Source: Squalus acanthias
Lineage: Eukaryota
Direction: 5' to 3'
Assembly (NCBI GenBank): GCA_030390025.1
Contig: CM059440.1
Coordinates: 21,328,001 to 21,392,000, forward strand
DNA: 64,000 nt
Under the pieces are notes generated by a model, which was not told where the DNA came from, did no database searches, and saw only the letters and a program-made list of their open reading frames with translations. Shown here piece by piece: positions 13,501 to 58,313 of the stretch; within the stretch, counting starts at the first letter, position 1; every line of letters begins with the position of its first letter. The translations under genes were made by a program, and so were the position numbers.

Positions 13501-16500
13501 ACCAGCTCGTCGCACACGTTCCTCAGCTCACTGGACGGGTAGGATTTCATCGACTGGCTCCGCTTGTGCTGCTCCCCGGCTCGAGTCAGGATACTCGATT
13601 TCTGCAGCGACAGAACAGACTGTGAGGCCCAACACACAGAGAAACAGGCAAAGTAACTGGGAGCCTCGAACCCCCTATGGTGCCGGGGGCCGCAACCCCC
13701 GACCATGCCGTCACCCCTGCGCAACCCCCGACCTTGCCGGGAGCCTCGACCGTGCTGGGGGGGCGCGACCCCAGAATGCGCTGGGAGCCATGAATCCCCC
13801 GAGGCAGAGTTTAAGTTTTATTTCAAGTTGGAGCGTATATTTAACTATTCGCAGTTACCGATGCAACTGAGCTGCTGGCTGCAAGATGGAATGTCCAACA
13901 CCACAACAATTCGCAGTTATACAGCAACTTTAACATCGTAAAACATCCCAAGGCATTTCATAGGGTCATCATTGACACCGAGCCACACATCACTAAGAAA
14001 CAAATTATCTGGTCATTATCACATTGCTGGGAGCTTGCTGTGCACAAGTTGGCTGCCGTATTTCTTACATTGCAACAGTGACTGCATTTCAAAAGTACTT
14101 AATTGGCTGTAAAGTGCTTTGGGATGTCCTGAGGTCGTGAAAGGCGCTATAGAAATGCAAGTCTTTCTTTCCCTGTATCAAGCTTATTTTGATGTAATGT
14201 TGCAAGTTTTGTCAGTTACAGGCTGGAGAGAGAAACAAACTGAAACAATGCCTTGCGATTGGTTCAGCGCAGGTCCGACGGTTCCTTTTAAAATTTTAGT
14301 GCTGGGATATTCAAAATCCAGGCAGTCCCAGTAACACTTTTCAAGGATATTCAAATCAAAGGGTCTATTTGACAATCTCAAAGAAACCAATTTGTTTGAA
14401 ACTGCTGAAAAATTATTTTGAATTTCCATGAAACAGTTTAATTAGGTTTCTACAGTGGGAAGAAATTCTATAAAAAGAAACACTATTATTTATAAAAGAT
14501 TAGCTAAGATCGTGGAGCTGCAATCTTTTTATTTTGTCCACTGACAGGTGTAAATATACAACCACTAATAGGTAAATATATACCTATAAATACGCAAATA
14601 TATAACTACATTTTATAATGTTCCTTATGTGCTTGCTCATCCTTTGATATGACTGGAGTGAGAGTTCATTGAGCCAGAGGGTAATTCCAGTTGCAAAAGC
14701 AATTATCAGACGGGGTTTGCTGTTCATTTACTGGGCGCATTACCCAAAGCTTAGTTAAATCTCAAGGCAAGGAGAGGCACTGTCGAAGGGTTGGGGTGTT
14801 GGGCCTCACGGTGAGAGCGATGCAAGATACAAGAGCGGAAATAATCTATGGTAAGAAGGTTAGAAAAGACCTAGAAACATACCAGCCATTATAAAATTCC
14901 AAGTTGTTGCTTTCAGTTACTCATTAACAGGAACAAAAAAAATCAAAGTAAAATAATAAACATGTAACTGAACAAACGACCACACTGACAAGACACAAAA
15001 AGTGCGAGTAATTGCAGAAGTGTGAACTTCAATTGCAGGGAAAGGTTAGAAAAACGTCAGAGTAGATCACAGGCGCACTCCGGTGGCTGTCGCCACTACT
15101 GCAGAGAATTGGAAACATACAGGTTAATGAAAAGAGGCCACCGACACCACAGGCTTTATCCTAGCAGAGTCAGTAAGATAGCGTGCGTGCTCAGTATTGA
15201 GTACAGCCCAGTGACTGGTCACTTCAGGGTCAGTTATTGGATACACGGAGTACAGCCCAGCGACGGGTCACTTCACACCTTGGAACTGTGGCTGATGACA
15301 AGTCATTTGGAATAAAAATTTACTCCTCAACCAACAGCACTAAAACAGATCATTTGGTAATTTATCTCATCGCTGTTTGTGGGAGCTTGCTGTGCTCCAA
15401 TTGGTTGCCGTATTTCCTACATTACAACGGTGACTACACTTCAAAAGTACTTCACTGGCTGTAAAGTGCTCGGAGATGTCTGAGGTTGTGAAAGGCGCGA
15501 TAGAAATGCAAGTTATTTCTTTATTTTCTTCATTATTCCACAACGCAAAAGGTGATTTGACCCAGTGTGTCTATCAGCTCTTCACTCGAACAATCTAAAT
15601 GTAATCCCACTGCCCAGCTCTCTCCCCATATCCCTGTATCTTCTTCAGTTTCCCACTGCCATCCCACAGCCAGGGGGAGCCCTAGTCATTGCCTCAGACG
15701 CTCTCGGGGACATACTCCAATTAGCGGAGAGCGATCATGCTCCACAGCATCATAGCTTCAGTTGGCATCACTTGCGCCGTGCTCTGTTCAATGTGTTGAT
15801 ATTACACTGGCGTAGATTTACCTTAAACTTAATGTTGTTGCTGATGAGGATGTTTCCCTTCATGAACTCCTTCTCATTCCCTCGGTTCTCCGTGACGACA
15901 GGGTAGGCATGATGTGCTGTGGTGCGCAGAATACTGACCAGTGATTGGATTCGGGTGTGAGGATAGACATAGGTTAGATTTGGCTCCATGATATCGCTGG
16001 CTGTCAGTCTGGGATTGAACATAAATATAATCAAACTCCAGTCTTTGAGACATGGTTTAAAACAATGTTCCCTGTAAGCTCCAGGGATCCCGTGCAGCCA
16101 GCTCTTCAATACAAAAACTGCGCACGCGCTGTATTTTGAATGGCCATCGCCGCATCTTAAAGGGTCCGCGCAGGGCTAAACAAAATTAGAGGGAAGTTCT
16201 GACGAAGGGTCATCGACCTGAAACGTTAACTCTGTTTCTCTCTCCACAGATGCTGCCTGACCTGCTGAGTATTTCCAGCATTTTCTGTTTTTATTTCAGA
16301 TTTCCAGCATCTGCAGTATTTTGCTTTTGTAAAATTAGAGGGAACACTGGTTTAGAAGTACTTTTACAATGTTTCCCTCTCAGCCTCACCGAGTGGCCAG
16401 CCTGGAGCCACTGCACAATCTCAACAGTTACTCTTTGCCCAAAGTGGAATCGCAGAACTCCGTTTCTGACCCGGGGAGGGAATCCCCCAGGACAACAACC

Positions 16501-28500: not shown

Positions 28501-31500
28501 CATTGGACAGATTCACAAACTCTGGAATATGGGAAAGAATGGGTGAAAGCTGGAACCTTGCAAATCACTGCTGCAGCATTCCCAAGCTCATTCTGTAATA
28601 GTCAGTGTGCTTCCTGCACCCCAGGACTCCCGCAGTGCTGGACTGCGCCACACGGTGGTTAGTGTTCTGAACAAGGCCTGGTCCAACAACACACACAGCA
28701 TTAACTCAGCTGAAGGCAGGAACAAGGTGAGTTCAGTTAACTGAGCATGGAGCCGGCTCGGTACCACACTGGGCCAGTTACCCAAACAAACCAGGAGGAG
28801 GGGGACTTCTAACCAAAGATCCAGTAAATTTATTGTACCACCAGGCAAGATCCTCAAAAAATGACTGGGGTGGGGGGATTTTTTTTGGGGGGGGGAGGGA
28901 GAGAGAGATCTGCTTGAAGGGTATCCGGTTTGAGGGGAAACCTGGTTTTGGTGGTGGGGGGGGGGGGGAACATTGGGTAACGTGACTTAATGCAACTACT
29001 TTAAACGCTCCATAAATCAATATTTTAAGCTTAACTACAGAACCAAAAGAACCTCAGGAGTAACTAACCCGACAATTTGGAGGCACAAATGATTAAAGAG
29101 AGTCACATCCCAAACACATTACATGTAAACGCAGATACATTCCGTTACCTGCCGGCTCCGCTCACTCACCTGGGGCAGCCCTGCTCCCACCACTGCTCCA
29201 CTGTGAATCATCGGGCCTTCCTTCCCCACAAATAGTCCTGGAAAACAAAATCACATAAAAAAGTTTGTACGGGGAGCACCAGACACTGCCCGAGACAGCG
29301 GGGCGAGAGGCAGCACCCACTGGCGAGGGAAACAGCCTCACACCAAGAGAATTGAATCAGCTCAAACTACAGCAGGACAAGAGGTGACCAAGTGCCTGCT
29401 CATAGTCAGGAAACCTGGGAAATACTGTTTCTGCTACACTCCAGGAACTCATGATAATTAAAAACCCACTGCATTTCCACATTGAGCTCCCAGGTCCAAT
29501 AAAAACAAAATCTGTTGTATTTAATCATGTGTCAGCGATCCCTACAAACTAGAAAAGAAGCAATGTATTGACACAGTATTTTTTTTTTTTTTTTTTTAAA
29601 AACAGTGGCATGCATTAAAATGCACCTCAACTTGAAACTGTTCCTGCTCAGTTTACACACAGCACACGCGACTTAGTGGAGGAAATCAGGAGGCTTTTAT
29701 TATGGGTCTGTAATTGAATCGCAAGGAGCAGAGAAAGTAAAACCCAACCACTACAGCTTGCCGACTCGCCACACGTGATCCTTCTATCATTTGTATTTAG
29801 CATCATTAAAATGAAACCAACACCTTACTGAGCACCCCGTAATAAACGCACTGCGGGGATGGGTGGGCAGAAACCGATCCACCAACAGTGGCAGCGGGTA
29901 TAACCGAACAGGGGAGCAGAGCGAAGCGACCAAGAGCTTGTTTATTGCACTTTGAGTAACTGGGTAATTCCTGTACAGATATAATTTTACCGCCTGAACT
30001 TTTTAATAATTTACTTTGGTAAAAGCCTGAGCTCCATTAGCACCAAATTAAGTAGAATAAGGAAGGGCTGATAGCGGTCAGCACATTATAAAGCTTGCAG
30101 ATGTCACTCGGGCAGAACAGCAGCATGTCAGACCCACACCAACACAGTGGGAATAAAAGATAGCTTATTTCTGATAAAAGGCCCCACCCAAAATATCAAG
30201 CCGCCTTTATCTCTTGGATTCTGATCAATCTGCTGCATATTTTCTGTATCGTTGCATTTGATGGGGTTGCTTGTGATTGTGATGAGGTTTAGCACATTTC
30301 CCCGAGCCCTGCATCAAACACAGAAACAAACCCGTGCTGTCCTTTACCTCCAGCCACGCAAAAGAGCACGCCCACTGCTTTACAGACCAGGGTCCGCAGC
30401 CTCACGATCCCAGGGATCTTCACCCCATTTAGGTAGCATTTGATTTCAGGAATTCCAGATCCTGCTGCAATGGGCTGTGAAGCAGAAAGACATTTTTCAA
30501 AACAAAGCGATGCCCTCCCCAGCCCTGGCCAAATGACGAGAGCAAGAACAGAACACAGACGGTCATAACCAGCCTGGCCCCTGCAGAGACCACGCAAAAC
30601 TTCTTTGAAGTTTTTGTGCAGGGAGACGGTGACGTGCACTGCCATCAGCAATGCCTGGGCTGAGCAGCAGATAGCGAGAGCAGTGCCCCACTATCTAGGG
30701 ACGCACCAGTGCCCAGGAGACATTGAACATCATTGCTGCCCTGTTATCATTTAACAGTTACATTATTTTTTGATGTAAAACACAAAACAAGCCCAATGTG
30801 GTGGAAACACGCTTGCGATTCTTACCTCAATCAGCACCAACAGGCTGGCCAGGAAAATGAAACCCATGTTGAATGCAAGGATCTCGAGGAGGGAGAGTGC
30901 AAGACAGCCCCGCTCACTGCAATCTTCCACCGCTGCAAGGCATGAAATCAGGGAAAATACACGGCACACAACAGTCAAAATACCTTTGGGATCACAGGTT
31001 CCCTCTACGACCACTGCACTCTCACAATAATCTACATAAACGCACTACCGAAAGCAGAGCAGGGAGACAGCTGGGGTGAGGGGACGAATCAGGGACGCCA
31101 CATTAGAGCAATTCAAAAACTTTAGAAAAACAACCAGGCAGAATTGTCAGGAAAACGTGGGACTCTTGGAGAGGACAGCGAGAACCAACACATCTTCATC
31201 AGAGGGCAATTCCCAGCACTTTCATCATGGGGAGGAGAAATAATCCTATCCTCTCCGTTCCTCGCTCCACACTTCTTTTATTCATTCATTCCTGGGATGT
31301 GGGCGATGCTGGCAAGGTCAGCATGGTGTGTGACTTGGATGGTCACTTGCAGGCGGAGGTGTTCCCATGCTGCCCTAGTCCTTCTAGGTGATGGAGGGAG
31401 TTGATTTGGGAGGTGCTGTCGAAGAAGCCATGCAGGTGCAGCAGGCAGTTAAGAAGGCAAATGGTATGTTGGCCTTCATAGCAAGAGGATTCGAGTACAG

Positions 31501-34500
31501 GAGCAAGGATGTCTTGCTGCAGTTGTACAGGGCATTGGTGAGACCACACCTTGAGTATTGTGTGCAGTTTTGGTCGCCTTATCTGAGGAAGGATGTTCTT
31601 GCCATGGAGGGAGTGCAGCGAAGATTCACCAGACTGATACCTGGGATGGCAGGAATGACGTATGAAGAGAGATTGGGTCGATTAGGCTTATATTCGCTAG
31701 AGTTTAGAAGAATGAGAGGGGATCTCATTGAAACTTATAAAATTCTAACAGGACTAGACAGACTAGATGCAGGAAGGATGTTCCCGATGGCAGGGGACTC
31801 CAGAACCAGGGGTCACAGTCTAAGGATAAGGGGTAAGCCATTTAGGACTGAGATGAGGAGGAATTTCTTCACCCAGAGTGTGGTGAACCTGTGGAATTCT
31901 CTACCACAGAAGACAGTTGAGTCCAATTCATTAAATATATTCAAGAAGGAGTTAGATATATTTCTTAAGGCTAAGGGGATCAAGGGATATGGGGAGAAAG
32001 CAGGGACAGGGTACTGAATTTGGATGATCAGCCATGATTGCATTGAATGGCGGAGCAGGCTTGAGGGGCCGAATGGCCTACTCCTGCTCCTATTTTCTAT
32101 GTTTCTATGCTAAGTTGCTTCAGTGGTTCCTGTTGATGGTACACACTGCAGCCATGGATAATGAAGCTGGTGGATGGGGTGCCGATCAAACAGGTTGCTT
32201 TGTCCTGGATGGTGACGAGCTTTATGAGTATTGTTGCAGTTGCACTCGTGCAGGAAATTGGAGAGCATTCCATCACACTCCTGACTTGTGCCTTGTAGGT
32301 GGTAGAGAGGTTTTGGGGGAGTCAGGATGTGAGCCACTAGTTGCAGAATACCCAGCCTCTGATCTGCTCTAGTAGCCATGGCATGTGTGTGGCTGGTCCA
32401 GTTTATGGTCAATGACGACCCCCCAGGATGTCGATGGGGGTACTCCACGATGGTAATGTCAATGAATGTTAAGGGAACATAGGCACAGGAGTAGGCCATT
32501 CAGCCCCTCGAGCCTGTTTCGCCATTCAAATTGATCATGGCTGATCTGTATCTTAACTCCATCTACCTGCCTTAGTTCCGTAACATTTTCTGAGGAATTG
32601 CGAATGGAGCTGAACACTGTGCAATCATCAGCGAACATCCCCACTTCTCACCTTATGATGGAGGGAAGGTAATTTATGAAGCACTGAAGATGGTTGGGCC
32701 GAGGACACTGCCCTAAGCAACTCCTGCAGCAATGTCCTGGGGCTGATGTGATTGGCCTCCAATGACCACAACCATTTTCCTTGTGCCAGGTATGACTCCA
32801 GCCACTGGAGAGATTTCCCCCTGATCCCCACTAACCTCAACTTTACTAGGGCTCCTTGGTGCCACACTCGGTCAAAAGCTGCCTTGCTGTCTAGGGCAGT
32901 CACTCAACTCCAGCTCTTTTCTCCATGTTTGGAACAAAGCTGTAATGAGGTCTGGAGCCAAGTGGTCCTGGCAGAACCCAAACTGAGCATCAGTGAGCAG
33001 ATTATTGGTGAGCAAGTGCTGCTTGATAGCATTGTCGATGACACCTTCAATCACTGTGCTGATGATTGAGAGTAGGCTGATAGGGCGGTAATTGGCTACA
33101 TTGTATTTGTCCTGCTTTTTGTGGACAGGACATACCTGGGCAATTTTCCACATTGTTGGCTGGATGCCAGTGTTATAACTGCACTGGAACAGCTTGGCTA
33201 GAGGCACGGCTAGTTCTGGATTACATTCCAGCTGTAACTCCCTCCTGGCTATCGGTCATTCTATATTCTCTCTCTCTTACACACTGATTCTCCTCGAGTC
33301 ATTCTCCAGGTCCTGACATTACTGCAAGTGAAAGGATACATTGCCCAATAATTTGGTACTTGAGGTCTGAGAAGAGATGAACAAAGTAATCGATGAAGAG
33401 CCCAACCTGAAACAAAGCAGAGTGAAATAGTCATTTAAAAACAGTTAATGAAATCCAATCACCACAAGCGGTGGCTGGCAGTTTATTATCTGTCTCCGAA
33501 CACCCCTCAGTGCCTGACCCTTTAACAGAAAAGCTGTGTCAGATTGGCTCAGTTTGTAGCACTCCTGTCAGAGTCAGAAGATCATGGGTTCAAGCCCCAC
33601 TACAGTACTTAATCACATAATCCAGGCTGACACTCCACTGCAGTACCGAGGGAATGCTGCATGGTTGGAGGTGCTGTCTTTCGGATGAGGCATCAAGCTC
33701 TTCAAGTAAATATTGAAGATCCCAGGCAGTCTTCCTGATGTCCCGGCCAACATTCCTCCCTCAACCAACACCACAAAGAGCAAATTAATTGGTCACTCAG
33801 CTCATTACTGTTTATGGGATTTTGCTGTGTGTTGCCACATTCACCCGCATTTCAAAGTAATTCACTGTATGTGAAGCACTTTGAGAAGTATCCCAACATT
33901 TGAAAAGCAGGATAAGGTGCTATATAAGGCGCTATAGAGTAGGACCTGTGGGGACTGGTGTGAGATGATGTTCAGGACAAATGCTCTTAGCTGAACACTG
34001 TGCAAATGGGAATGTTAGCACCTCAGTTAACAGCAAATCCTTACTTACATATTTCATTTATATTAACACAAAACAACTTGCATTTATATAGCGCCTTTAA
34101 CATAGTAAAACATCCTAAGGCGCTTCACACCAATTACCAAACAAAATTTGACACCAAGCCACATTAGGAGATATTAAGACAGCTTGGTCAAAGAGGTAGG
34201 TTTTAAGGAGCGTCTTCAAGGAGGAGAGAGAGGCGGAGAGGTTTAGGGAGGGAATTCCAGAGCTTAGGGCCCAGACAGCTGAAAGCACGGCCACCAATGG
34301 TGGCGTGATTAAAATAGGGGGTGCGCAAGAGGCCAGAGTTGGAGGAGCGCAGAGATCTCGGAGGGTTGTAGGAGGTTAGAGAGATAGGGAGGGGCGAGGC
34401 CATGGAGGGATTTGAAAATAAGGATGAGAATTTTAAAATTCAAAACAAATGTATAACAAACATAACCACCAACAATCTGTAGAAACAATAAGTGACAAAT

Positions 34501-37500
34501 AATGATGTATAATACACAGGAATTCTGCACTCCCACAGAGGAATAATGATAGCATCCTTCCCCAGACTGGGAGGCAAATCACCCCAGGCCAACAGGGGCC
34601 ATGTCTGCCCAGAAAGTTCACAGTTGTGAAATACAAAGGGTGGAAGGATGAGGCTGATGACTGTGATCATTACCCAGGGTTAGCAGCCCAGTGCCCGCTC
34701 GGTCTGCCCCATGCCACAGCAATGCCATTCTCCCTTTGATACCAGGAGAGTCAAAGTCAGTTGGCCAACACTGGGAAGGTGAGGCATTCCATTCAACAGA
34801 AACACCGACCTCCCAGAAGCAGCCACTCAAACTGCCAGTGATTGTCTTGCTCTTAGTTTATATTAAACACATATTTGCAAAGTGACACCAAGAACTCACT
34901 CACCAAACCAGTGCAGGCACCGATACAAAATACTAGCATCCATTTCACCAGCTCGTATCTCCTGACTCTCTGTTTAAATGAAACAAAGTTAACGACAGCA
35001 GCCACACACAGTGATCAAAACAAACTGAAAGCAGACTTAACAGTAGAGGGGTGGGTTAGTGTGGCAAAAGGGAAGTATTTTTGTCTAATTTTAGTTTGGT
35101 AGCAAGAACAAAAAATGGTGAAAACACTCAGCCAGTCAGTCAGCATCTGTGGAGGGAGAAACAGTTAATGTTTCAGGTGTGCATCAAGGGGTCTGTACCT
35201 GGAATGTTAACCTGTCTGTTCCCTCCACAGATGCTGACTGACCTGCTGAGTATTCCCAACATTTTCTGTTTTTGCTTTGGTTTATTTAGTTTGGTAATAT
35301 TTAATTCAATCACAATACTAAAGGGTTGATGTCAGCAAGCAGTTCGTCACACAAAGGGTAGTGGAAATCTGAAACTTTCTCCCCCAAAAAGCTATTGAGG
35401 CTGGGGGCAATTGAAAATTTCAAAACGGAGATTGATAAGATTTTTGTTTGGCAGGGGTATTAAGGGTTAAGAAACCAAGGCAGGCAAATGGAGTTCAGAT
35501 ACAGATCAGCCAAGATCGAATTGAATGGCGGAGCAGGTTTGAGGGGCTGAATGGCCTCCTCCCGTTCCTAGTTTATAAATATTCCTTGAGCGCAGCTGAC
35601 TGGATGCATCATGGGAAATTAGGTGCCCTGCACACGCGCTCAGGGTGCATGCACGCTTCAAATGCAGATTTAGGCAAAAATATCAAGTCTAAGCTCAAGC
35701 TTTTGAGAGAGGATGAGGCCTCCAAATTAAACACATTAGTGAAGGTACTAAAAGGTACAAATACTATCCCACGGATAAGGTTAATCATGTTATACTGAAA
35801 TGTGTCACTTCTGATTTGTTTCTAAGGTTTCTTTAAACCCTTATTTTGGATTGTAGAAATTTCAGTTACTGAGGAAAAATAAATAAAATCACAAATCAAC
35901 TTTTCAGAGTGATTTGCGGAGAAAAAGAATACAGCGTCAGCGGTGTCCCGGGTGCAGAAATAAACCTCCATTTATACAGCCTTTCACAGCCTCAGGATGT
36001 CCCAAAGTGCTTCACCGCCAATCAAGAACTTTTGAGTTTAGTCACTATTGTAATGTAGGGAAAAAATGCAGCCAATTTTCACACAGCAAGATCCCACAAA
36101 CAGCAATGAGATAAGTGACCAAATAATCTCTTCCAGTGCAGTTGGTTATGGGATAAATTTTGGCTGGGACACCAGGAGAACTGCCCTGCTCTTATCTGAA
36201 CAGCGAGAGGGGATCAGCTGTCCACTTCAGGGGGCAAAGGGGCCTTAGTTTAACCTCTCATCCGAATATCCCCACCTCCAACACTCCCAATGCCAGCCTA
36301 GATTCTGCGCTCAAGTCTCTGGAGTGGGGCTGTAACCCATGACTTTCTGAATCAGATGCAAGAGTGCTCCCACTGAGCCAAGACTGGCACTGTTTATAGA
36401 GGTGGTTTTTATTCTAATTGGGGACATAGGGATTTATAATGGGAAAACGATGACACAAAAGTGTAGCAAAAAGTAAGGCTTTGTAGACAGGAAATGCAAA
36501 AGATATTAAGATGTAATAGATATGGCCGCTGTTCAATAAATTTACTTGAGAGTTATTGCCTGAAATGAGGTTTGATGTAAATGCTCTGCTGCTTTCCAAA
36601 GACAACGCCTGAGGATAGATCCATGAGCCAAGGAAAATTTTAAAGAAAGGCTTTCTGTTCATTATCCTGGGCAAATTAACTAAATATACACAGATATCTG
36701 AACCAGTGAAAGTGCTGTCAAGGCAGTGAGGTTGCAAAATCTAAGTTCAGGATAAGAAAAGCACAAAAAGTGCAACAGCAGTTTCTCAGTGTACCTTGTT
36801 ATCCAGCGTTTCCAGCACCTCCAGGTATGGCTCATTGATGCACTTATCATAATCCAAACTCTGCCAAGAAAAGAGAAACCATCAGCACACCAGAAAGAGA
36901 ATGCTTAGAAAGAAAGATTCCAACAGGGGCGGAACAAACTGGGAATCCACTGCAACTGTGCTGTCATTTCACTACAATCATGAAACTTGCCGTGAGGATT
37001 CCATCTGGAGTACGATTAGGGAGCAGACAGTGAGCCACTGCCAGCACCAGGGCTGGCCAAAATCAGAATCAAAATACCTGCATACAATGTAATCATTAAT
37101 ACTATACATAATAATATAAAAAGCAGCAACTCACTTAAAAATCATGATTTAATCTTGGGGTTCAAGTCATTTATAAATCGCTTGATAGCCTTAGCCATGA
37201 AAGTGATGACTGTGCTCATTCCGGGCTATGTTATTCTATATGTAAACCACTCGAACCCCTCGATTAGATCCCAGCCTGCAACTCACATCTCGGGTATCTG
37301 TTATTGTGTATATATACACACACCACTCAAAGACTTCAATTAGATACCAGCCTGTAACTCACTCCTGGGTATTCTATCTGTGAACTATCAGAACACTCTG
37401 TTTCCGGGTTACGTTGTTGCACAGTATAAATGTACCAATTTATCGTGGCTCCCTATTGCTGCTCTTCTGAAATCACTGCCGTAATGTGATGACTGTGTGA

Positions 37501-40500
37501 CTCCTAAAGACAGTGTTCAAGGGGAACTTCCAGCTATAACAAAGCCTGTCTTCCAGATCTACTGCAATACCAGTCACACACAGCACTTCTGGCAATGTGA
37601 AGATTAGAATTGCAAATGCAAATTCAGGTTTAAACAAGAGTTTCTCCGTATTCAGATTGCAATATTGTACACCAGCAGATTTAACAAGGGTAACTAATCT
37701 ATTCAAGACAGCATGTGCCAGAACTCCTTCCCCATGGATATAAGATGAGGCCGGCGGGAGTTTGAAAGAACATCTGTTGAGCAAAGAGGGAGCTGCCAGC
37801 TGACTTGAGTTTTATTAAAACATTAAACCATTTGGTCTTTGAACAGACACGTGTACGGCCTAATGGTACCTCAAAAATCTCTCTTGGACTGAGCTTTGTG
37901 GCACAGCAGAAGTGTGGGAGCAGTTAGTCTGTCTGAGCTCCCAGCTGATGACAGTGCGCGGCTGGGGAAACTCAAAAATGGAGGGAAGAAAATGAATGAT
38001 AAAAAACAGTTGCCGGTTCCCTCCCTCCCCCAGAGTATATGTAGCAGATGTGCAGCACACAGGAACAAATGATGGTTGGATGCACACTTCCCCTGCACCA
38101 GTTCACTTTTATACCTCATAATCTTTCCGTGGCAGAATTTCATCCTCTTCCTCCTGTGTCTCTCCCAGAATAGTCTGTCACAAATAAAGAGAGTTTTGCA
38201 TTAATTCCAGTCCAGTTAAATACCAGTCAATCAAGAGCCCAATAACTGGAATATCAGCTTTGCTTTCTCTTCTCAAAGGGCCTGACATAAATTGATGAAT
38301 TCCGATGATAGCAGTTGTAGAAATATAAAGTTTTACAGAAACTGAACAGCTGACTCACAACAGACTACACGTCCCCTCCTCACCATTGCATTATCCCCAT
38401 ATAAACCACCACCTATATAATGCTGGGAGTCAGCTGAAATTTGCGAGTCTGAGATCGTTAGATATTTTTTGGGTAAGGGTATCAAGCGATCTGGGGAAAA
38501 GGCAGGTAAATGGAGTGGAAGTACAGAACAGCCATGATCTAATTGAACAGGCTCAACGGGCTGAATGGCTCACTCCTCCCATGTACCCTCAGCATGACAC
38601 TCTGTACTCACTACCCTTGTTCTTTCTTCCTTATTTCCATTCAGAATCATCACAGCATCATGGTCAGTGGCCAAATTGCAGCAGGTCAAGAATAAACAAA
38701 CACAGGAAATGTTCACTATCTACCATCAGTCAGGGCACTGACTGGAGCACTGTGATCTCACGATCAGTCAGCTGCAGCCTTTCAACCCCCGCTGACCAGG
38801 GGCTTTAACGCTCTGCTACCCGCCCCCACCCACCCTGTTGACCGGGGGGCTGTAACCCTCCAATACCCTCCCCACTGACTAGGGGCTGTAACCCTCCGAT
38901 ACCCACCGCGCTGACCAGGGGCTATAACCATCCAATACCCCCCTCCCCGCTGACCGGGGGCTATAACCCTCAGATGCTCCCCCACCCTGCTGACCTGACC
39001 AGAGGCAGTAACACTCCGAAAACACCCCCCCCCCTCCCACCCCACCCCGCTGACGGGGGGCTGTAACCCTCCAATGCTTCCCCCCCCGGGAGCTATAACC
39101 ATCCGATAACCCCCCACCCCGCTGACCAGGGGTTGTAACCCTCCGATACCCGCCCCTCCCAACCCTGCTGACCAGGGCTTGAAGCCTTCAATACCTCCCC
39201 AACACCAAGTTTGGAAATATTACATCACTAATCCACTATCCTCCTGCAACAAACCCATTCCATCTCTGAGCCCGGGAACATTGGAAACGTTACCCATTAC
39301 TCTCCTCACTCAGGTCCCTGAGGAGTTACCACAGTTAACGCTAAACATCACATTACGTGCGGACTCACTCGGAGTTTCATTAGTGGCTCAGAAAAAAAAA
39401 TTGGAAAACAGATAGACAAGAACATAATAAATAGGAGCAGGAGTAGGCCATACAGGCCTCTTGCGCCTGCTCAGCCATTCAATAAGATCATAGAAGCATA
39501 GAAGATAGGAGTAGGCCATTCGGCCCCTCGAGCCTGCTCTGCCATTTAATGAGATCATGGCTGATCATCCAAATTCAGTACCCTGTCCCTGCTTTCTCCC
39601 CATATCCCTTGATCCCTTTAGCCTTAAGAAGTATATCTATCTCCTTCTTGAATATATTTAATGAATTGGCCTCAACTGCCTTCTGTGGTAGAGAATTCCA
39701 CAGATTCACCACTCTCTGGGTGAAGAAATTCCTCCTCATCTCAGTCCTAAATGGCTTACCCCTTATCCTTAGACTGTGACCTCTGGTTCTGGACTCCCCC
39801 GCCATCGGGAACATCCTTCCCGCATCTAGTCTGTCTAGTCCTGTTAGAATTTTATAAGTTTCAATTAGATCCCCTCTCATTCTTCTAAACTCTAGCGAAT
39901 ATAAGCCTAATCGACCCAAAATCTCTTCATACGTCATTCCTGCCATCCCAGGTATCAGTCTGGTAAATCTTCACTGCACTCCCTCCATGGCAAGAACATC
40001 CTTCCTCAGATAAGGCGACCAAAACTGCACACAATACTCAAGGTGTGGTCTCACCAAGGCCTTGTACAACTGCAGCAAGACATCCTTGCTCCTGTACTCG
40101 AATCCTCTCGCTATGAAGGCCAACATACCATTTGCCTTCTTAACCGCCTGCTGCACCTGCATGCTTACCTTCAGCGACTGGTGCACAAGGACTCCCAGAT
40201 CTCGTTGCACTTCCCCTTTTCCCAATCTATTGCCGTTCAGATAATAATCTGTCTTCCTGTTTTTGCCACCGAAGTGGATAACCTCGCATTTATCCACATT
40301 ATACTGCATCTGCCCAATCACCCAACCTGTCCAAATCATACTGGAGTTTCTCTGCCTCCTCCTCACAGCACACACGCCCACCCAGCTTTGTGTCGTCTGC
40401 AAACTTGGAGATATTACATCTAGTTCCCTCATCTAGATCATTAATATATATTGTGAATAGCTGGGGTCCTAGCACCAATCCCTGCAGTACCCCACTAGTC

Positions 40501-43632: not shown

Positions 43633-44629
43633 TGCAAGATTCTGAGATTCATTTCTCACATGATCTGTACTTGTGGGTCTGAGTGTGATTGTGCAGCGGT
43701 TTGTTTTGTGATGTCGCTGCTCAGAAGTAAATTGAGCTTCAAACTTCTTCATTCAGACTCTGGGATTTAGTCCTGCTCTTGGCGCTCTGTCCCGACAGGT
43801 GGTCAAACTCACGAAAATCCAACACAATCTCAGATCGGGGTACTAAATGTTACAGATAATATATTAATATTGTGTGGACCCAGTAATGAAGATCAGAACA
43901 TTACAACAGATGAAAACCGAAACCTTAAAAATATGATTTCCGTGAACCACGCCGATATCGCAAACACTTGTTTTCAGAAGGACGGAGTTAGGTTTAAACT
44001 CACTTGAAGATGTAACCTTCGGTAGTCCGTTAACTAAATATCCACAATGTGATTTCACGGCTGGCGGGGATAAGTCAGTTTATCGGCGCTAACCCGCACC
44101 TCGAGGATTTTCGCTTCTCCGGTAACATTTCTTAGTTACTTTCGCCAGTTTGTAACTTGTATTGTGTGTGAATATCGTTGTATCGAATCTACCTGTAGTT
44201 GAGCACATTTCAAATACCGTTTGAATTGTAACTTTCTCTTTCCTCAAACCACCAACAGGACAAAGTGTTCCATGGAATGAAGGTACTCGGTGTAGAATCA
44301 GAGGTTCATCCTTGGCTACTGGTTCAGATGGGCGATGTTACAATGGCTGCTTTAAATGTTTGGCTGCGAGTCTGGGTGTATCGGCCTTTTTATAAATGGG
44401 AGATCGCTGCCAGGCCGTGGGGCTTGTTACCGGGACAGTCCGATATAAAGGACCGTGTCTCATCCATGCCTTTGTTACTTCTAGACTTGACTATTCCAAC
44501 TCACTCCTGGCTGGCCTCCCACATTCCACCCTATGTAAACTTGAGGTGATCCAAAACTCGGCTGCCCGCGTCCTAACTCGCACCAAGTCCCGTTCACCCA
44601 TCTCCCCTGTGCTCGCTGACCTACATAAG

Positions 44630-44840
44630 CAAAAGTGAGAAGTCGCACAACACCAGGTTATAGTCCAACAGCTTTATTTGAAATCACAAGCTTTCGGAGC
44701 GCTGCTCCTTCGTCAGGTGACGAAGGAGCAGCGCTCCGAAAGCTTGTGATTTCAAATAAAGCTGTTGGACTATAATCTGGTGTTGTGCGACTTCTCACTT
44801 TTGTCCACCCCAGTCCAACACCGGCATCTCCACATCATGG
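44630..44840 (+). mobile_element. Palindromic Penelope-like insertion (family B), 86-bp arms plus 37-bp unique tail
   Basis: Arms 44630-44715 and 44718-44803 with 1 mismatch. Direct repeat CTACATAAGCAA at 44621-44632 and 44841-44852. Inserted in an L2 fragment. Confidence 0.8.
44684..44720 (-). ncRNA. Minimal type-I hammerhead ribozyme motif (family B)
   Basis: Minus strand TCAC-CTGACGA-A-GGAGC(AGC)GCTCC-GAAA-GCT-T-GTGA: helix I TCAC/GTGA, palindromic helix III AGCT. Confidence 0.75.
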
Positions 44841-45409
44841 CTACATAAGCAACGCCTCGATTTCAAAATTCTCATCCTTGTTTTCAAATCCCTCCATGGC
44901 CTCGCACCTCCCTATCTCTATAATCTCCTCCAACCCCACCGAGATATCTGCACTCCTCTAATTCTGCCCTCTCGAGCTTCCCTAGTTATAATCGCTCAAC
45001 CATTGGTGGCCGTGCCTTCTGTTGCCTAGGCCCTAAGCGCTGGAATTCCCTGCCGAAACCTGTCCACCTTGCTTACCTCTCTTTCCTCCTTTAAGATGCT
45101 CCTTAAAACCTACCTCTTTGACCAAGTTTTTGGTCGCCTGCCCTAATTTATCCTTATGTGGCTCGGTGTCAAATTTTTTGTCTTTTAATACTCCTGTGAT
45201 GCGCCTTGGGACATTTTATTACGTTAAAGGCACTATACATACAAGTTGTTGTTGTGTCCTGCGGGCCTGAATCCTTCGTGAGGCAAGAGTGGAGCTGGAG
45301 AGAGAAACATGAGGCTCGTCATTTCCAGTAATTGGTCCTATATTTTGAAGAATTCTGCTACAGAATCAGAGTGAGAGATTAGTATAGATGCCTTTGACCA
45401 AATAATAAC

Positions 45410-52600: not shown

Positions 52601-55600
52601 GCATCCCATTCTCTACGTCTTAAACTAGGCAAGGTGCTGATTTCAATCTTGTTTCCTTGCAGGTTACCCAACAGGGCACCCAGAGAGTGACAGTTACGAG
52701 GAGGATCTCAGACACCTGAAGGCAAAGGTAGATGCCGGCTCAGACTTTATCATCACCCAACTCTTCTTCAAACCTGAAACCTTCCTTGCGTTTTTCAAGG
52801 ACTGTCGTGCAATTGGAATTACTTGTCCTATTCTGCCAGGAATCTTTCCCATTCAGGTACGTATGAACAGAGGCCTGGAGGCATCCCTGATCCCAGGTGA
52901 GCATCCTATACTGAGGTGACATGTCTTGTGGTGTAGGCCTTGCACTGGAGCAGTAACTTCACCAAGTTTCCTGTAGGAAGAGAGTGCTCCTCACTCCTTG
53001 TGCTGATGCAGTTCAGGTTATTGACATCAATCTCATTTTCCCTTATCCTGTGGCAGGGGTATCACTCATTGCGACAGCTGATCAAACTCTCCAAGCTACA
53101 GGTGCCACAGGAAATCAAAGACATCATTGACCCAATCAAGGATAATGATGCTGCTATTAGGAATTATGGTATTGACTTGGCCACTGACATGTGCAAGGTT
53201 CTGCTGGAATCGGGGCTGGTGCCAGGGCTCCACTTCTACACCCTGAACAGAGAGATGGCAACCATAGAGATTCTGAAACGACTGGGACTGTGGACCGAGG
53301 ACCCTAGGTGGGTTTGAACAGATAATATAACTACGTACACAAGTACATGATCTCTGCAATTCACTAGACCAGGACTAGCAGAAATCTTAATGATACTAGC
53401 TGGCCAATTAGCGTCATTTTGTTTAAATTCTGGATGTACCTGCCTTTCCCTTATTTATTGATTAACTTGCATCACTATATTGGTGTAGGACATGATATTA
53501 CTTAATCCCAGAAAGGAGATTATTGGTTTACAGTGGCTGTACTGTAACTGTGATCTATAAGAGTCCAGGAATTCAACGTTTGAATATTTCCTAGCTTTGT
53601 ACCATTCTTTTAGAAAGCTGTCATGGAGTCGGGTGTGTCTAACCTTTTAATAGTCTCTTTCTCTCCCCTCCCCCAGACGATCCTTGCCGTGGACCATCAG
53701 CGCCAATCCAAAGCGAAAGGTCGAGGATGTCCGACCAATATTCTGGGCTTCGAGGCAGAAGAGTTACATCTACAGAACCCAGGATTGGGATGAATTTCCC
53801 AATGGAAGATGGTACAATCTTTAAATCATTACTGGTGTTTAGACCATGAACTATTGTGTAAAGGTGCAGTATGAGAGCAGCTCATCACACTCGTAAGTTT
53901 ACAATTGTAAATGTTTGGCCTGCTACTAGTGTTGCCAGTTGGGTTTCGTTAGTGTGGTGTGTGGAATTTTCATGCTATATCCACTTCAACTGTGGAAAAA
54001 TACCCAGGAGCACAATTCTTGATTCAGTCCTTCCAAACTTGGGTTGTGTCTGGAGCGAGCGTTTTGAGCTGTGTAACACCAGGTTCAAGTGCTGGTGTTT
54101 ACAGGTCTCTCATCGTCAATTTGAGGGGATGAATATGGAGTATTCCAACATTAAAGTATATTGGCTAAAGTGTGGATTTATTTTCTCTCTTGTATATTGG
54201 TACCAATTCACTAAATAGATCCAATGGCAACACTGGAGAGTTTGTTTAATTTCCCGAGCCCCTAAAGCTTGCAAACAATTGTACAGAAGATATTTACAGA
54301 TAAAATCAAGTTGAACTCGATTGGTGGCTTTGCCCTAAACTAGTTGATCAGTGTCTAGATTCTGTGTGATTTTATATTCGATGTTTTAGGGGGAACTCAT
54401 CATCTCCTGCATTTGGTGAGCTGAATGATTACTACCTCTTCTATCTGAAGAATAACTGTCCCAAGGAGGAGCTGCTGACGATGTGGGGGGAGGAGCTGGT
54501 AGATGAAGAAAGCATCTTTGAGGCCTTCACGACGTATATCACTGGGCAACCCAACCGCAACGGGAAAAAGGTAATAGAACTAGTGACCAAGTAAAACTGT
54601 GCTAAGAAGTTGCTGTAATATTTATTGTAACTAATTCATAAGACAAGAGTTAAGTTACCAATCCTGTAGCAGTTTATGGAAACTTAACTTTAAGTTAAAA
54701 ATGTCATTTGATGCTCATTTCTGACTTGCCCAATTCAGTGTTTAGATACAGCTGCTACCAGGTGAAGTTACACCGTGCAGGAGAATGAGGCTTGAGGCTT
54801 GAAAACTTCAAACGGGTGACATTGCTGATTAATGTCAAGATATTTCAATATTCAAGCTCTCTTGACATATTTATGTCCTATAAATGTAAATGTATATGGA
54901 GTTGTCAAAGTCCAGAACCTCCAGTGCAAGCCTTGGGGTTTCTGTGCTACTCGCGCCTCCATTGAGAGTTAGTCGGTATTTCAGACAGCCACAGTCTTCC
55001 TGTACAACACAATTTGCCAATTTAACTAGCACCATCTGTCGAGCTGGTATTAGCAACTGTTTTTGATATTGTCTTGTTTCCCAGCAAGAGCTCCAGCAAC
55101 ATCCACAACAGTGACCGTCATTCTTCAATACTGTGATTCCTCATCCCTCTGACTTGTAGCAACATGATGCGGAGATGCCGGTGTTGGACTGGGGTGGACA
55201 AAATTGAGAGGTCGCACAACACCAGGTTATAGTCCAACAGTTTTATTTTAAATCACAAGCTTTCGGAGTTACAACTCCTTCGTCGGGTGAACACTTCACC
55301 CGACGAAGGAGTTGTAACTCCGAAAGCTTGTGATTTAAAATAAAACTGTTGGACTATAACCTGGTGTTGTGCGACCTCTCAATTTTGTAGCAACATGTCA
55401 GATGATCTGGTCTTATCTGATCTTCAGGTTGGGGATCTATATCCAAAAAATATTTAATTGAATCATCTTACAAATATCTGGATAAATGAGAACTTTCCCC
55501 TTGTGTGCTAAAGAATTTCAGGATAAAGGAGTTTTTTTCCTGGCCAGTATATCTGGAAATTGTTCAGTAAACTTGTTTTGAACTTGAGAATCTACAGAAG

Positions 55601-58313
55601 AACCAATTCTAACGGAACAGACACTAGATTCTGGGACCTTATGGCAAATGTTTTCACCGACTGTCTTCCAAAAAGAAAGCAGTAGCAATCGCCCAACAGT
55701 GACTTGCTCGTGACTCAATGTTCCTCTCTCTCCCGCTATCCCCGGAGATGGAACATGCATCCTGATGGCAGCTAGTGGACTGTGAGCTGGCACAACTTGA
55801 CCAGCTGAAGTAAACCACTTTGGGCCTGGCAGCCTCTGGCTTGGAGTCCAGGGCTCAAGTGCTTGAACAACCAAACCAGCCCTGTTTTTAAACAATGTGA
55901 CTTCTGGTTTGTGTATTCTCAGGTAACCTGTCTGCCCTGGAATGACGAACCTCTGGCACCAGAAACATCCCTGATGAAAAAGGAACTAGAGAAGGTGAAT
56001 CAGATGGGAATTCTCACTATAAACTCCCAGCCCAACATCAACGCTAAGCCATCAACTGACCCCATCGTGGGCTGGGGGCCAGAGGGAGGCTACGTGTTCC
56101 AGAAGGTAAGAGTAACTAGAATACTAGGAGAGTAAAGAGAACCTATTGGGGGTTCAGAACTCCCTGGTTTGGAATCTAGGGCAAGTGAGGATAGGCCATG
56201 AGGGAACATATGTCTTTGCTCTGTGCCTGAATCTTGCTCTTCCTGTTCCAGGCCTACCTCGAGTTTTTTACATCCTCTGAAAATATATCTACTCTACTCA
56301 AAGTTCTGAAGAAATACAAAACACGAGTGAACTACCAGATCGTAAATGTGAAGGTGAGGACTCATCAGTCATGGTTGGGACCGCGAGTCCTGCAGTAAAG
56401 GAGGTAACTGAGTTTCACTTGTACTGTAACGAAAGGTGCTAGAAGATGAAGAGTTCCACTCTGTCTATCTCTAGTCTGTTCTTTTGTTTCTCGGTCAGTT
56501 GCAGGTTGCTAGGGATTCACTGATGCCTGTTAACTTTCATCAGGAGATTGAGTGTGAATTTTCTAACTCTGTTGGGCCTGGGGAGGGGCTTGTCATACTC
56601 AATAATTATTTCTAAGAGCCTGTTGGTGAAAAGCCAACATATATCCACCCCAACCTCAGGCCTGCATTTAAAAGGATGCTGTCTGTGCGCTAACACTTCC
56701 TAGTCATTCGACAATATGGCCGCGTCTGCAGGCTGGAGTGAAGAAGTCCACTAGCTGCATTTCCTCAGTCATGCGTTACTACTTATCTGAACTGCACTCC
56801 CCTGCGGCGATCAGCAGTGGAGCCCAAAGTGATGGATATATCACAGGGTGGGATCGGCAATGGAGCTCTCAGTGATGGGTGTATTGCAGGGTGGGATCGG
56901 CAGTGGAGCTGTGACGGGTGTATCGCAGGGTGGGACAATCTCTCCTCAATGCTCACACTGCTACAGGTGACCATCTCCAGCTTCAACATGCCTGGGGCTC
57001 GGATGGAAAGAGCCGTTATGGGGGTGCTTTACTGCCTTCTGGACTACATAGGGCACTGGAATGGCCCCAGGGAGACCCCAGCAGTCAGGGCATGGCTGCA
57101 AGGTGACATGACCAGCCCCTCTAGTCTTCCACTCAGATGATAACTGCAAACAAGCATTCAACCCGGCAAAAGGAGGCTGACTGTTCCCTCAGTCCCAAGA
57201 GGCCCCCACTGAGACCCAGCAACCAGCCTGACTTGCACCTGCCACTGGAGGAGCAGCGAGAAGCCGCCTCACGTTAGGTTCGGCAGCATACAAACTCACC
57301 AAGGAGACTAAATGGGCAACAATCCACTTTATGGAACACAAGCAGATTGGGTTTCAGACTGAGTTACTCAGATCTTGTATCCAACCTAATATGGGCATAA
57401 GTGAGAAATTGCAGCTGTTTTCAGCACTGATTCATAAACTAACCTTGAACCTTTTCTAACCTGTTGCAGGGTGAAAATATAAATAATGCCTTTGACCTGC
57501 AGCCGATTGCAGTTACGTGGGGGATCTTCCCTGGACGTGAGATAATTCAGCCCACAGTGGTCGATCCCATCAGCTTCATGTACTGGAAGGTAATGGGAAT
57601 CAAACCTTGTGCAGAATAAAATACAATAAACTCCTGGGTGGCTTTGTAAAGAAGTGACAGTAGATGAATTTCGTAACTGTTCCATTTCCTTCCCCCCGCA
57701 ATGGCTCTGAACACATCGATCCTCAGTCCTCCTGCCTGTATGTGTGGCAGCTCCCAATATGTTGCTCTTGGATTCCTGTCTGCTACTTTGTGCGGTCAAC
57801 TATTCAAAGACCTGGTACAGCCCCCTTCCATTCAAAAAATCAACAATGGAATTTCTTACCAACACTTGCCCTAATATCCCAGTGCGCGCACTGCTTTATC
57901 TGACATCAAAGGGAGAAATACATTTGGTCTGTAGAGAGGGGAATAGTCAGAGTGTGTGGGGGGGGAGGGCAATAGTCTGTGTGTGTGGGGAGAGCGGGGC
58001 AGTCTGTGTGTGTGTGGGGGCGGGGGGAGATAGTCTGTGTGGGGAGCAGTCTGCAGACTCTAACGCTGTGATTTGTTCTCAGGATGAAGCCTTTGCCCTG
58101 TGGATTGAGCGATGGGCGAAATTGTACCCGACAGGATCTCCCTCTCGGCAGATAATTCAGGACATTCACGACCACTATTATCTGGTCAATCTCGTGGACA
58201 ATGACTTTCCATTTGAGAACTGTCTCTGGCAAGTTATTGATGACCTCTTCACGTTAAAAGCGTCTGAAAAGACTTGTGCTTCTCCAGCTTGTGACCTGCC
58301 TGTAGAACCTTGA
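49451..58313 (+). CDS. MTHFR: MTHFR gene span: methylenetetrahydrofolate reductase, 11 coding exons, 1965 nt CDS, 654 aa
   Basis: Spliced exons give the Ser-rich N-terminus (STPG), the catalytic barrel ([29 protein letters not shown]), the linker and the SAM-binding regulatory domain. All introns are GT-AG. Confidence 0.98.
50080..50345. repeat. G-rich low-complexity repeat (GGTGCCGGAGCGGG..)
   Basis: Visible degenerate units. Confidence 0.7.
51214..51452 (+). CDS. MTHFR: MTHFR coding exon 2 (FDRMAVGGP...KNILALRG)
   Basis: 239 nt, AG/GTGAGA flanks. Confidence 0.97.
52459..52569 (+). CDS. MTHFR: MTHFR coding exon 3 ([37 protein letters not shown])
   Basis: 111 nt, AG/GTAAGC flanks. Confidence 0.97.
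52663..52856 (+). CDS. MTHFR: MTHFR coding exon 4 (GYPTGHPE...[13 protein letters not shown]...PGIFPIQ)
   Basis: 194 nt, AG/GTACGT flanks. Confidence 0.97.
53057..53307 (+). CDS. MTHFR: MTHFR coding exon 5 (GYHSLRQL...[10 protein letters not shown]...WTEDP)
   Basis: 251 nt, AG/GTGGGT flanks. Confidence 0.97.
53677..53811 (+). CDS. MTHFR: MTHFR coding exon 6 ([44 protein letters not shown])
   Basis: 135 nt, AG/GTACAA flanks. Confidence 0.96.
54390..54570 (+). CDS. MTHFR: MTHFR coding exon 7 ([11 protein letters not shown]...QPNRNGKK)
   Basis: 181 nt, AG/GTAATA flanks. Confidence 0.96.
55167..55388 (-). mobile_element. Palindromic Penelope-like insertion (family B), 94-bp perfect arms plus unique tail
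   Basis: Arms 55198-55291 and 55295-55388 with a 3-nt spacer CAC. Direct repeat TTGTAGCAACATG at 55154-55166 and 55385-55397. The tail is the reverse complement of the tail of the 44.6-kb copy. Confidence 0.8.
55253..55333. ncRNA. Back-to-back hammerhead motifs (family B, CCGA core variant) on both strands: + 55296-55333, - 55290-55253
   Basis: TCAC-CCGACGA-A-GGAGT(TGTA)ACTCC-GAAA-GCT-T-GTGA is present in each arm of a perfect inverted repeat. Confidence 0.65.
55923..56105 (+). CDS. MTHFR: MTHFR coding exon 8 ([11 protein letters not shown]...[12 protein letters not shown])
   Basis: 183 nt, AG/GTAAGA flanks. Confidence 0.97.
56252..56353 (+). CDS. MTHFR: MTHFR coding exon 9 ([34 protein letters not shown])
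   Basis: 102 nt, AG/GTGAGG flanks. Confidence 0.96.
57470..57589 (+). CDS. MTHFR: MTHFR coding exon 10 ([40 protein letters not shown])
   Basis: 120 nt, AG/GTAATG flanks. Confidence 0.97.
58083..58313 (+). CDS. MTHFR: MTHFR coding exon 11 ([11 protein letters not shown]...LVNLVDNDF...DLPVEP*)
   Basis: Acceptor TCTCAG at 58082, stop TGA at 58311-58313. Confidence 0.96.

Follow-up and report, generated by a model that had tools for sequence, protein, structure and literature searches.

A young palindromic insertion with hammerhead motifs in an MTHFR intron of Squalus acanthias, very probably a truncated Penelope-like element

Copies of Penelope-like elements (PLEs) have been described with inverted pLTRs, a 31-bp tail on one of the repeats, target-site duplications of 8–10 bp and palindromic head-to-head junctions (PMC3846280). 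A tail of 30–40 bp, often at one end only, is given in PMC8557442, and active PLEs of Chlamydomonas leave very short, 5′-truncated insertions with a median length of 128 bp (PMC9977147). The minimal type-I hammerhead motif of PLEs (min-HHR) did not cleave as a single unit and cleaved weakly as a dimer; motif pairs located 100–700 bp apart on opposite strands were also described (PMC4209133). The route leading to inverted, one-tailed PLE copies is called undefined in PMC8557442, and the suggestion put forward for inverted copies in PMC3846280 needs an antisense template. A PLE protein assayed in vitro was able to cut both strands of the target and to extend them, with RT starting at two sites spaced by the length of the tail (PMC11167929). 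The literature covered contained neither shark PLE hammerhead palindromes nor a two-primer model for inverted pLTRs; these absences are weak evidence, as most subscription papers, among them those that first described PLE structure, were outside the coverage. The layout of the insertion presented here is already known for PLEs; the useful addition is a hint, taken from its junctions, at how such copies arise.

The window, i.e. the whole 64-kb stretch of DNA that was analysed, contains this insertion at 55.2 kb. It consists of the following features:

55154–55166, + strand: left copy of the 13-bp target-site duplication, of which the last 4 nt are shared with the element just past the tail start site
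55167–55197, − strand (element sense): one-sided 31-nt tail, PLE-type 3′ extension, with 30/31 nt identical in the 44.6-kb tail
55198–55291, − strand: long arm, which bears the tail and is antisense in the MTHFR pre-mRNA
55253–55290, − strand: minimal type-I hammerhead motif with U4C; cleavage predicted between 55257 and 55256
55292–55294, unstranded: 3-nt spacer and palindrome axis, 5–8 nt 5′ of the hammerhead core
55295–55388, + strand: short arm, which lacks the tail, is sense in the MTHFR pre-mRNA and contains AATAAA at 55339
55296–55333, + strand: minimal type-I hammerhead motif with U4C at 55301, predicted cut between 55329 and 55330
55385–55397, + strand: right copy of the 13-bp target-site duplication, of which the first 4 nt are shared with the element at its tail-less start site
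54571–55922, + strand: host MTHFR intron, 1352 nt, GT-AG, with flanking exons matching Pfam MTHFR_C

The two arms are exact reverse complements of each other (94/94) around the spacer. In the control, for which the longest perfect inverted arm was scored in eight base-shuffled 64-kb windows, the arms reached 8–11 nt. The flanking direct repeats are perfect as well (13/13), the right copy overlapping the final 4 nt of the right arm, and the unpaired tail occurs on the left side only. An earlier interpretation of this DNA, made from the letters alone (the sequence-only reading), had described the 94-bp palindrome, its 3-nt spacer, the one-sided tail, the 13-bp direct repeat and the location in an MTHFR intron, and all of these were confirmed. 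In the sense arm, AATAAA is followed by a GU-rich stretch (55339–55375), a possible poly(A) signal of the element that is masked in the predicted hairpin.

MTHFR (49.4–58.3 kb, + strand) and a CLCN6-like gene (25.9–41.9 kb, − strand) are arranged head to head, an order which we take to be the same as in human. A very GC- and CpG-rich tandem repeat with all six frames open was observed at 22.9–24.7 kb (GC 0.76 and CpG o/e 1.5 at 23–24 kb).

The relative at 44.6 kb was found to be a head-to-head palindrome too, with the same architecture as the 55.2-kb copy, which goes beyond what had been noted before. Its features are:

44621–44852, unstranded: same-family sister insertion with a 12-bp duplication (44621–44632/44841–44852)
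44630–44715 and 44718–44803, unstranded: arms of the sister insertion, 86 bp with 1 mismatch and a 2-nt centre
44804–44840, unstranded: tail of the sister insertion, 37 nt, on one side
− strand only: hammerhead of the sister insertion, with intact CUGA

A profile search of the window yielded only four arms of this family, meaning that two of two insertions are palindromic; both have a similar palindrome size and the same short-arm end. The copies differ from each other in 10 columns of the arm and one of the tail. Both arms at 55.2 kb share all of the arm differences from the relative (10/10), including the core change from CUGA to CCGA (U4C), as the sequence-only reading had stated. The sister copy is nested in another dispersed repeat (44621–44852) and lies between the CLCN6 start (approximately 41.9 kb, CpG-rich at 41.5–43 kb) and the first MTHFR coding exon (approximately 49.4 kb), possibly inside an intron of the MTHFR 5′ UTR. 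On the + strand, its arm end and tail (44790–44840) resemble a 3′ splice site with a pyrimidine run and CAG, followed by an ATG at the end of the tail; this could be the intron end and ORF start of the parent element.

A second hammerhead family in the window is unrelated to the first, nothing being alignable beyond words of 7–9 nt. It comprises:

16182–16344, + strand: solo copy with an intact CUGA min-HHR at 16199, antisense to CLCN6, with a 14-bp duplication and a 5′ end 3 nt before the core
35090–35296: decayed head-to-head palindrome with a 12-bp duplication, in a CLCN6 intron
4634–4719: fragment with a breakpoint inside stem II
645–773: weak possible head-to-head pair (E-values of 5e-4 and 0.04)

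The arms at 35.1 kb match in 65 of 80 columns and have private variants in common.

In the + motif at 55.2 kb, stem I is formed by 55296–55299 and 55330–55333 and the core by 55300–55306, followed by an extra A; stem II (55308–55312/55317–55321) is accompanied by GAAA, the self-complementary AGCU and U17. Every part of the hammerhead layout that had been claimed for each arm was found in this way. A descriptor that was composed after the motif had been seen, and that permitted U or C at core position 4, matched four times in the window (55300 +, 55286 −, 44716 − and 16199 +), compared to a mean of 0.025 and a maximum of one in 40 simulated windows. The motif at 44.6 kb agrees with the PLE min-HHR consensus (Fig. 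S3 of PMC4209133) at every position, while the core at 55.2 kb departs from it by U4C in both arms. Of the features of this class, helix I, helix II, the GAAA box, the extra nucleotide, the G10.1-C11.1 pair, the palindromic helix III and the NUH site were found; an intact CUGANGA core is absent in both arms at 55.2 kb and present on the − strand at 44.6 kb. Taken in isolation, the motif is predicted to fold into stems I and II.

A search with hammerhead models, which had been proposed together with the first interpretation, was run with Rfam. It gave no hammerhead match, either in the whole window at the gathering score or in the 55.2-kb and 44.6-kb copies down to E = 10. The Rfam models probably do not cover the minimal forms, as the sister copy with CUGA was missed too. 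Matches to miRNA-precursor models were far below the gathering scores and were rejected as generic matches of long hairpins.

In its architecture and type of ribozyme, the 55.2-kb insertion agrees with published PLEs, and we have little doubt that it is a recent, heavily 5′-truncated PLE insertion with two hammerhead-bearing 3′ ends placed head to head. The PLE features present are head-to-head inverted 5′-truncated copies (2/2 family insertions), a tail of 31 and 37 nt at one end (known range 30–40 nt), target duplications of variable length (13 and 12 bp) and a hammerhead motif in the terminal repeat. The Penelope-type origin suggested by the sequence-only reading is thereby upheld; membership rests on non-coding features because the autonomous partner was not reached. 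The insertion has no ORF, and no full-length copy, which in PLEs would be flanked by direct pLTRs in partial tandem, is found in the window. The Pfam scan covered 139 ORFs, i.e. 137 of the 159 ORFs of at least 85 aa plus two shorter ones, with 22 low-complexity tandem-repeat ORFs omitted. It returned MTHFR, CLC/CBS and LINE-like fragments with five RVT_1 domains and one APE-type endonuclease, and no GIY-YIG domain among the 139 ORFs. A search of the peptide in the arm-tail frame against longer proteins gave no matches, which is a weak test; one match of this peptide (4818 aa, 15 repeated stretches, 46% identity) was rejected as too long and too repetitive for a PLE ORF. The autonomous partner with RT and GIY-YIG that had been looked for was thus found neither among the 139 ORFs of the window nor by the peptide searches.

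Being short, non-coding, palindromic and flanked by a duplication, the insertion could also be taken for a MITE or for a fold-back DNA transposon whose terminal inverted repeats are long. However, one end extends 31–37 nt past the inverted repeat, the length of the duplication (12 and 13 bp) and the centre vary, and a PLE-type hammerhead is carried, which leaves this origin extremely improbable. The same holds for a fold-back artefact of the assembly, a reading hardly worth entertaining: it would account for the 0 mismatches between the arms, but on either side the flanks are unique and the MTHFR exons follow in their order, and there is a target duplication, a tail typical of the family and an independent sister copy whose centre differs.

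The perfect arms (94/94) and duplication (13/13) bear out the proposed young age. By simple arithmetic, 0 mismatches in 94 bp correspond to an arm divergence of less than approximately 3% (95%). The claim of a young non-autonomous element holds only in its first part, as a truncated dead-on-arrival copy fits equally well as a self-propagating non-autonomous element. The arms had also been proposed to be copied from one template or homogenised later; we retain the single source, while homogenisation is not needed, since older palindromes decay (1 mismatch in 86 bp between the 44.6-kb arms, 65/80 matches between the 35.1-kb arms). Most likely, the arms were identical at birth.

For an older insertion homogenised later by hairpin-mediated gene conversion, one can cite the difference from the sister in the arms (approximately 10%) next to that in the unpaired tail (1/31). 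As a test of homogenisation, this comparison (10/93 vs 1/31, Fisher p 0.29) is not significant, and it does not tell variants of the source from changes that came later. Against later homogenisation stand the perfect target duplication, the mismatch between the sister arms and the 35.1-kb palindrome, which has decayed despite private variants shared by its arms; we regard it as very improbable. The 35.1-kb arms themselves were born alike and then decayed. One of the 10 arm differences is a compensatory change from a C-G to a U-A pair in stem II, which suggests that the variants derive from the source lineage or subfamily, although the pair could stem from templated mutation in a DNA hairpin instead.

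In both copies of the family, each 3′ end of the target, at the end of the duplication, runs into antisense element sequence. This defines two fixed antisense start sites, which are separated by the tail. Target and element overlap by 4, 4 and 3 nt at three of three testable joints, the fourth joint being outside the test; the joint chance of these overlaps is approximately 3e-7, assuming fixed, target-independent junction points. At the centre of the 44.6-kb copy, the two central bases are sense-derived on the tail-first strand, and fold-back of the tail-primed cDNA alone is therefore ruled out. The same centre fits two cDNAs annealed through a 3-nt overlap. This argument applies to the 44.6-kb copy only, as assigning the strand origin of the 55.2-kb centre needs upstream family sequence.

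Based on the two family copies, the end-to-end joining of two target-primed cDNAs appears to be the most likely route, a view that we hold with modest confidence. The RT-endonuclease of the element would introduce a staggered cut and thereby leave two 13-nt 3′ overhangs, each of which would pair over 3–4 nt with sense RNA and prime a cDNA. One cDNA would begin at the tail start site and the other at the tail-less start site, approximately 31–37 nt upstream. The templates would be either a single RNA, copied with strand displacement, or sibling RNAs from a common source, and the arms would thus be born identical, U4C included. Both cDNAs would halt just 5′ of the hammerhead core and then join end to end. 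We infer both the PLE enzyme and the two primings.

Self-priming and trimming models have been voiced for head-to-head copies (PMC3846280; PMC8557442). Applied to a PLE insertion at this locus, the antisense strand would prime itself at the junction mini-palindrome, and one tail would be trimmed as the endonuclease resolves the intermediate. Besides this published argument, the centre of the 44.6-kb copy on the + strand forms a perfect hairpin of antisense sequence with 3 bp and a 2-nt loop, as self-priming would leave. Such a route, however, requires an antisense template, and target overlaps at both fixed start sites are not expected from it alone; in vitro, priming on sense RNA took place from both strands of the target (PMC11167929). 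We therefore consider it unlikely.

The two palindromic copies, with their similar size and common short-arm end, could also be ascribed to a non-autonomous palindromic element, in which read-through RNA of an existing palindrome is copied by a single priming event as one unit that comprises tail, long arm, loop and short arm; identical arms would follow directly. Still, the centres differ between the copies, which implies at least two separate origins, and an exact stop of the short arm without parental flank or random truncation is not expected. In addition, the second, unrelated family has both solo and palindromic copies. A palindromic master is improbable on these grounds. Taken together, PLE origin, joining of two target-primed cDNAs and the consequences for the host described below form the best overall explanation, in which we have moderate confidence.

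The palindrome axes at 55.2 and 44.6 kb are located at the 5′ edge of the hammerhead, where the solo 16.2-kb copy starts as well, and the breakpoints at 35.1 and 4.6 kb are inside the hammerhead motif. The stop looks position-defined, as all breakpoints are at or inside the hammerhead though long and short arms differ by the tail. A tentative and doubtful proposal is that the dimer-only PLE hammerhead acts as an RNA clasp more than as a cutter. Two transcripts would be held together by pairing in the palindromic helix III and in a crossed helix I; from each overhang of the staggered cut, one cDNA would be primed by a dimeric RT-endonuclease, and the cDNAs would meet and join at the clasp. If true, the clasp would explain one-tailed head-to-head copies, the axis at the hammerhead, poor cleavage and the tolerance of U4C in a mobile lineage. 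The proposal draws on five loci only, and an RNA 5′ end or ordinary truncation nearby accounts for the axis equally well. In addition, the hammerhead dimer has no advantage in predicted folding energy over two monomers (−16.7 vs 2 × −8.8 and −19.1 vs 2 × −10.0 kcal/mol); in the lowest-energy dimers of this nearest-neighbour prediction, the two stem-II hairpins pair instead.

U4C considerably lowered hammerhead activity in vitro and still supported viroid infectivity (PMC3088659). For the Anolis Poseidon element PAc, cleavage required the protein of the element and was dispensable for insertion (PMC11167929). The 55.2-kb ribozyme is most likely inert: it is expected to be inactive because it lacks a same-strand partner, carries U4C and belongs to a group in which the one PLE tested depends on protein.

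The + strand of the insertion has a predicted fold of −187 kcal/mol (z −29.9). With the hammerhead stems forced, the energy is −124 kcal/mol, i.e. a cost of approximately 62 kcal/mol, and the predicted probability of arm-arm pairing is at least 0.97 across the motif. When prefixes were folded, the hairpin zipped once the sense arm emerged. Folding thus predicts what had been suggested for the MTHFR pre-mRNA: a 94-bp dsRNA in which the antisense arm is transcribed first and traps the ribozyme. The notion of a self-silencing insertion does not survive as anything special, given that the antisense arm comes first in every head-to-head copy, whichever strand is read, and that the ribozyme is expected to be inactive anyway.

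The insertion was also named as a candidate substrate of ADAR or Dicer. Access of Dicer to a nuclear intron is unlikely. The role as an ADAR substrate has precedent in the heavy hyper-editing of lizard Penelope repeats and palindromic Harbinger repeats of frog, and the brain of elephant shark is also hyper-edited (PMC5625713); A-to-I editing of the 55.2-kb copy is plausible by analogy. Within the CLCN6 span, two LINE-like fragments (31429–32109 and 39489–40163) are 95–96% identical over approximately 660–680 nt, inverted and 7.4 kb apart, and represent a longer potential dsRNA than the 55.2-kb palindrome.

The predicted hairpin would mask the ribozyme together with the intronic AATAAA, which could be read as a regulatory or self-silencing device that is under selection in MTHFR. 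The insertion, however, is very young, and each splice site is over 500 nt away; masking results from the geometry of any head-to-head copy, and the second family retains a solo copy in an intron of CLCN6, albeit one that is antisense to this gene. A device of this kind has almost no probability in our view, and a selected silencing function is not needed. The effect on the host is probably nil apart from possible A-to-I editing. The locus is ordinary in being one of several PLE-type scraps within 64 kb, and is probably neutral. If abundant, such copies would rank among the major sources of the intronic dsRNA available to ADAR in this lineage.

As a cleanly preserved trace of an integration step, the 55.2-kb insertion bears on the open question of how inverted, one-tailed PLE copies arise. 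Palindromes that are young, very short and abundant would allow a genome-wide count of polarity, of target overlap, of the strand from which the centre derives and of where the axis lies.

Compared to the truncated copies of endonuclease-containing PLEs (PMC3846280; PMC8557442; PMC8969392), the insertion features the same head-to-head repeat, tail at one end, duplication, palindromic junction and strong 5′ truncation. The duplications of 12–13 bp are longer than those of the rotifer examples (8–10 bp) and, in contrast to the published truncated PLEs, only approximately 95 nt of the 3′ end are left per arm, with no ORF. The hammerheads share the 4-bp helix I, the extra nucleotide before helix II, the G10.1-C11.1 pair, the palindromic one-pair helix III and the AU-rich 3′ flank with the minimal type-I hammerheads of PLEs (PMC4209133; review PMC6765202). 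The two motifs at 55.2 kb are only approximately 13 nt apart, whereas the pairs in PMC4209133 are separated by 100–700 bp, and U4C is found in none of the 56 representative motifs in Fig. S3 of that paper, a figure without a shark motif.

The in vitro data on Anolis Poseidon PAc (PMC11167929) feature the same two RT start sites, a tail length apart, and the use of both target strands. The ORF of PAc starts inside the hammerhead and spans the tail, whereas here stops follow the hammerhead in all three frames. Priming by PAc is reported to proceed without target homology, unlike the overlaps observed here. Non-LTR retrozymes (bioRxiv 10.64898/2026.07.22.740005) are likewise non-coding and PLE-related and carry a type-I hammerhead, but form head-to-tail tandem arrays in which cis dimers are possible, while the 55.2-kb copy is head to head. 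An assignment to this group was rejected, as head-to-tail hammerhead units are absent and the copies are inverted, on opposite strands. In the hyper-edited palindromic repeats of the frog Harbinger and lizard Penelope elements (PMC5625713), a single copy folds into a tight dsRNA in the pre-mRNA, and the same is predicted for the insertion in MTHFR.
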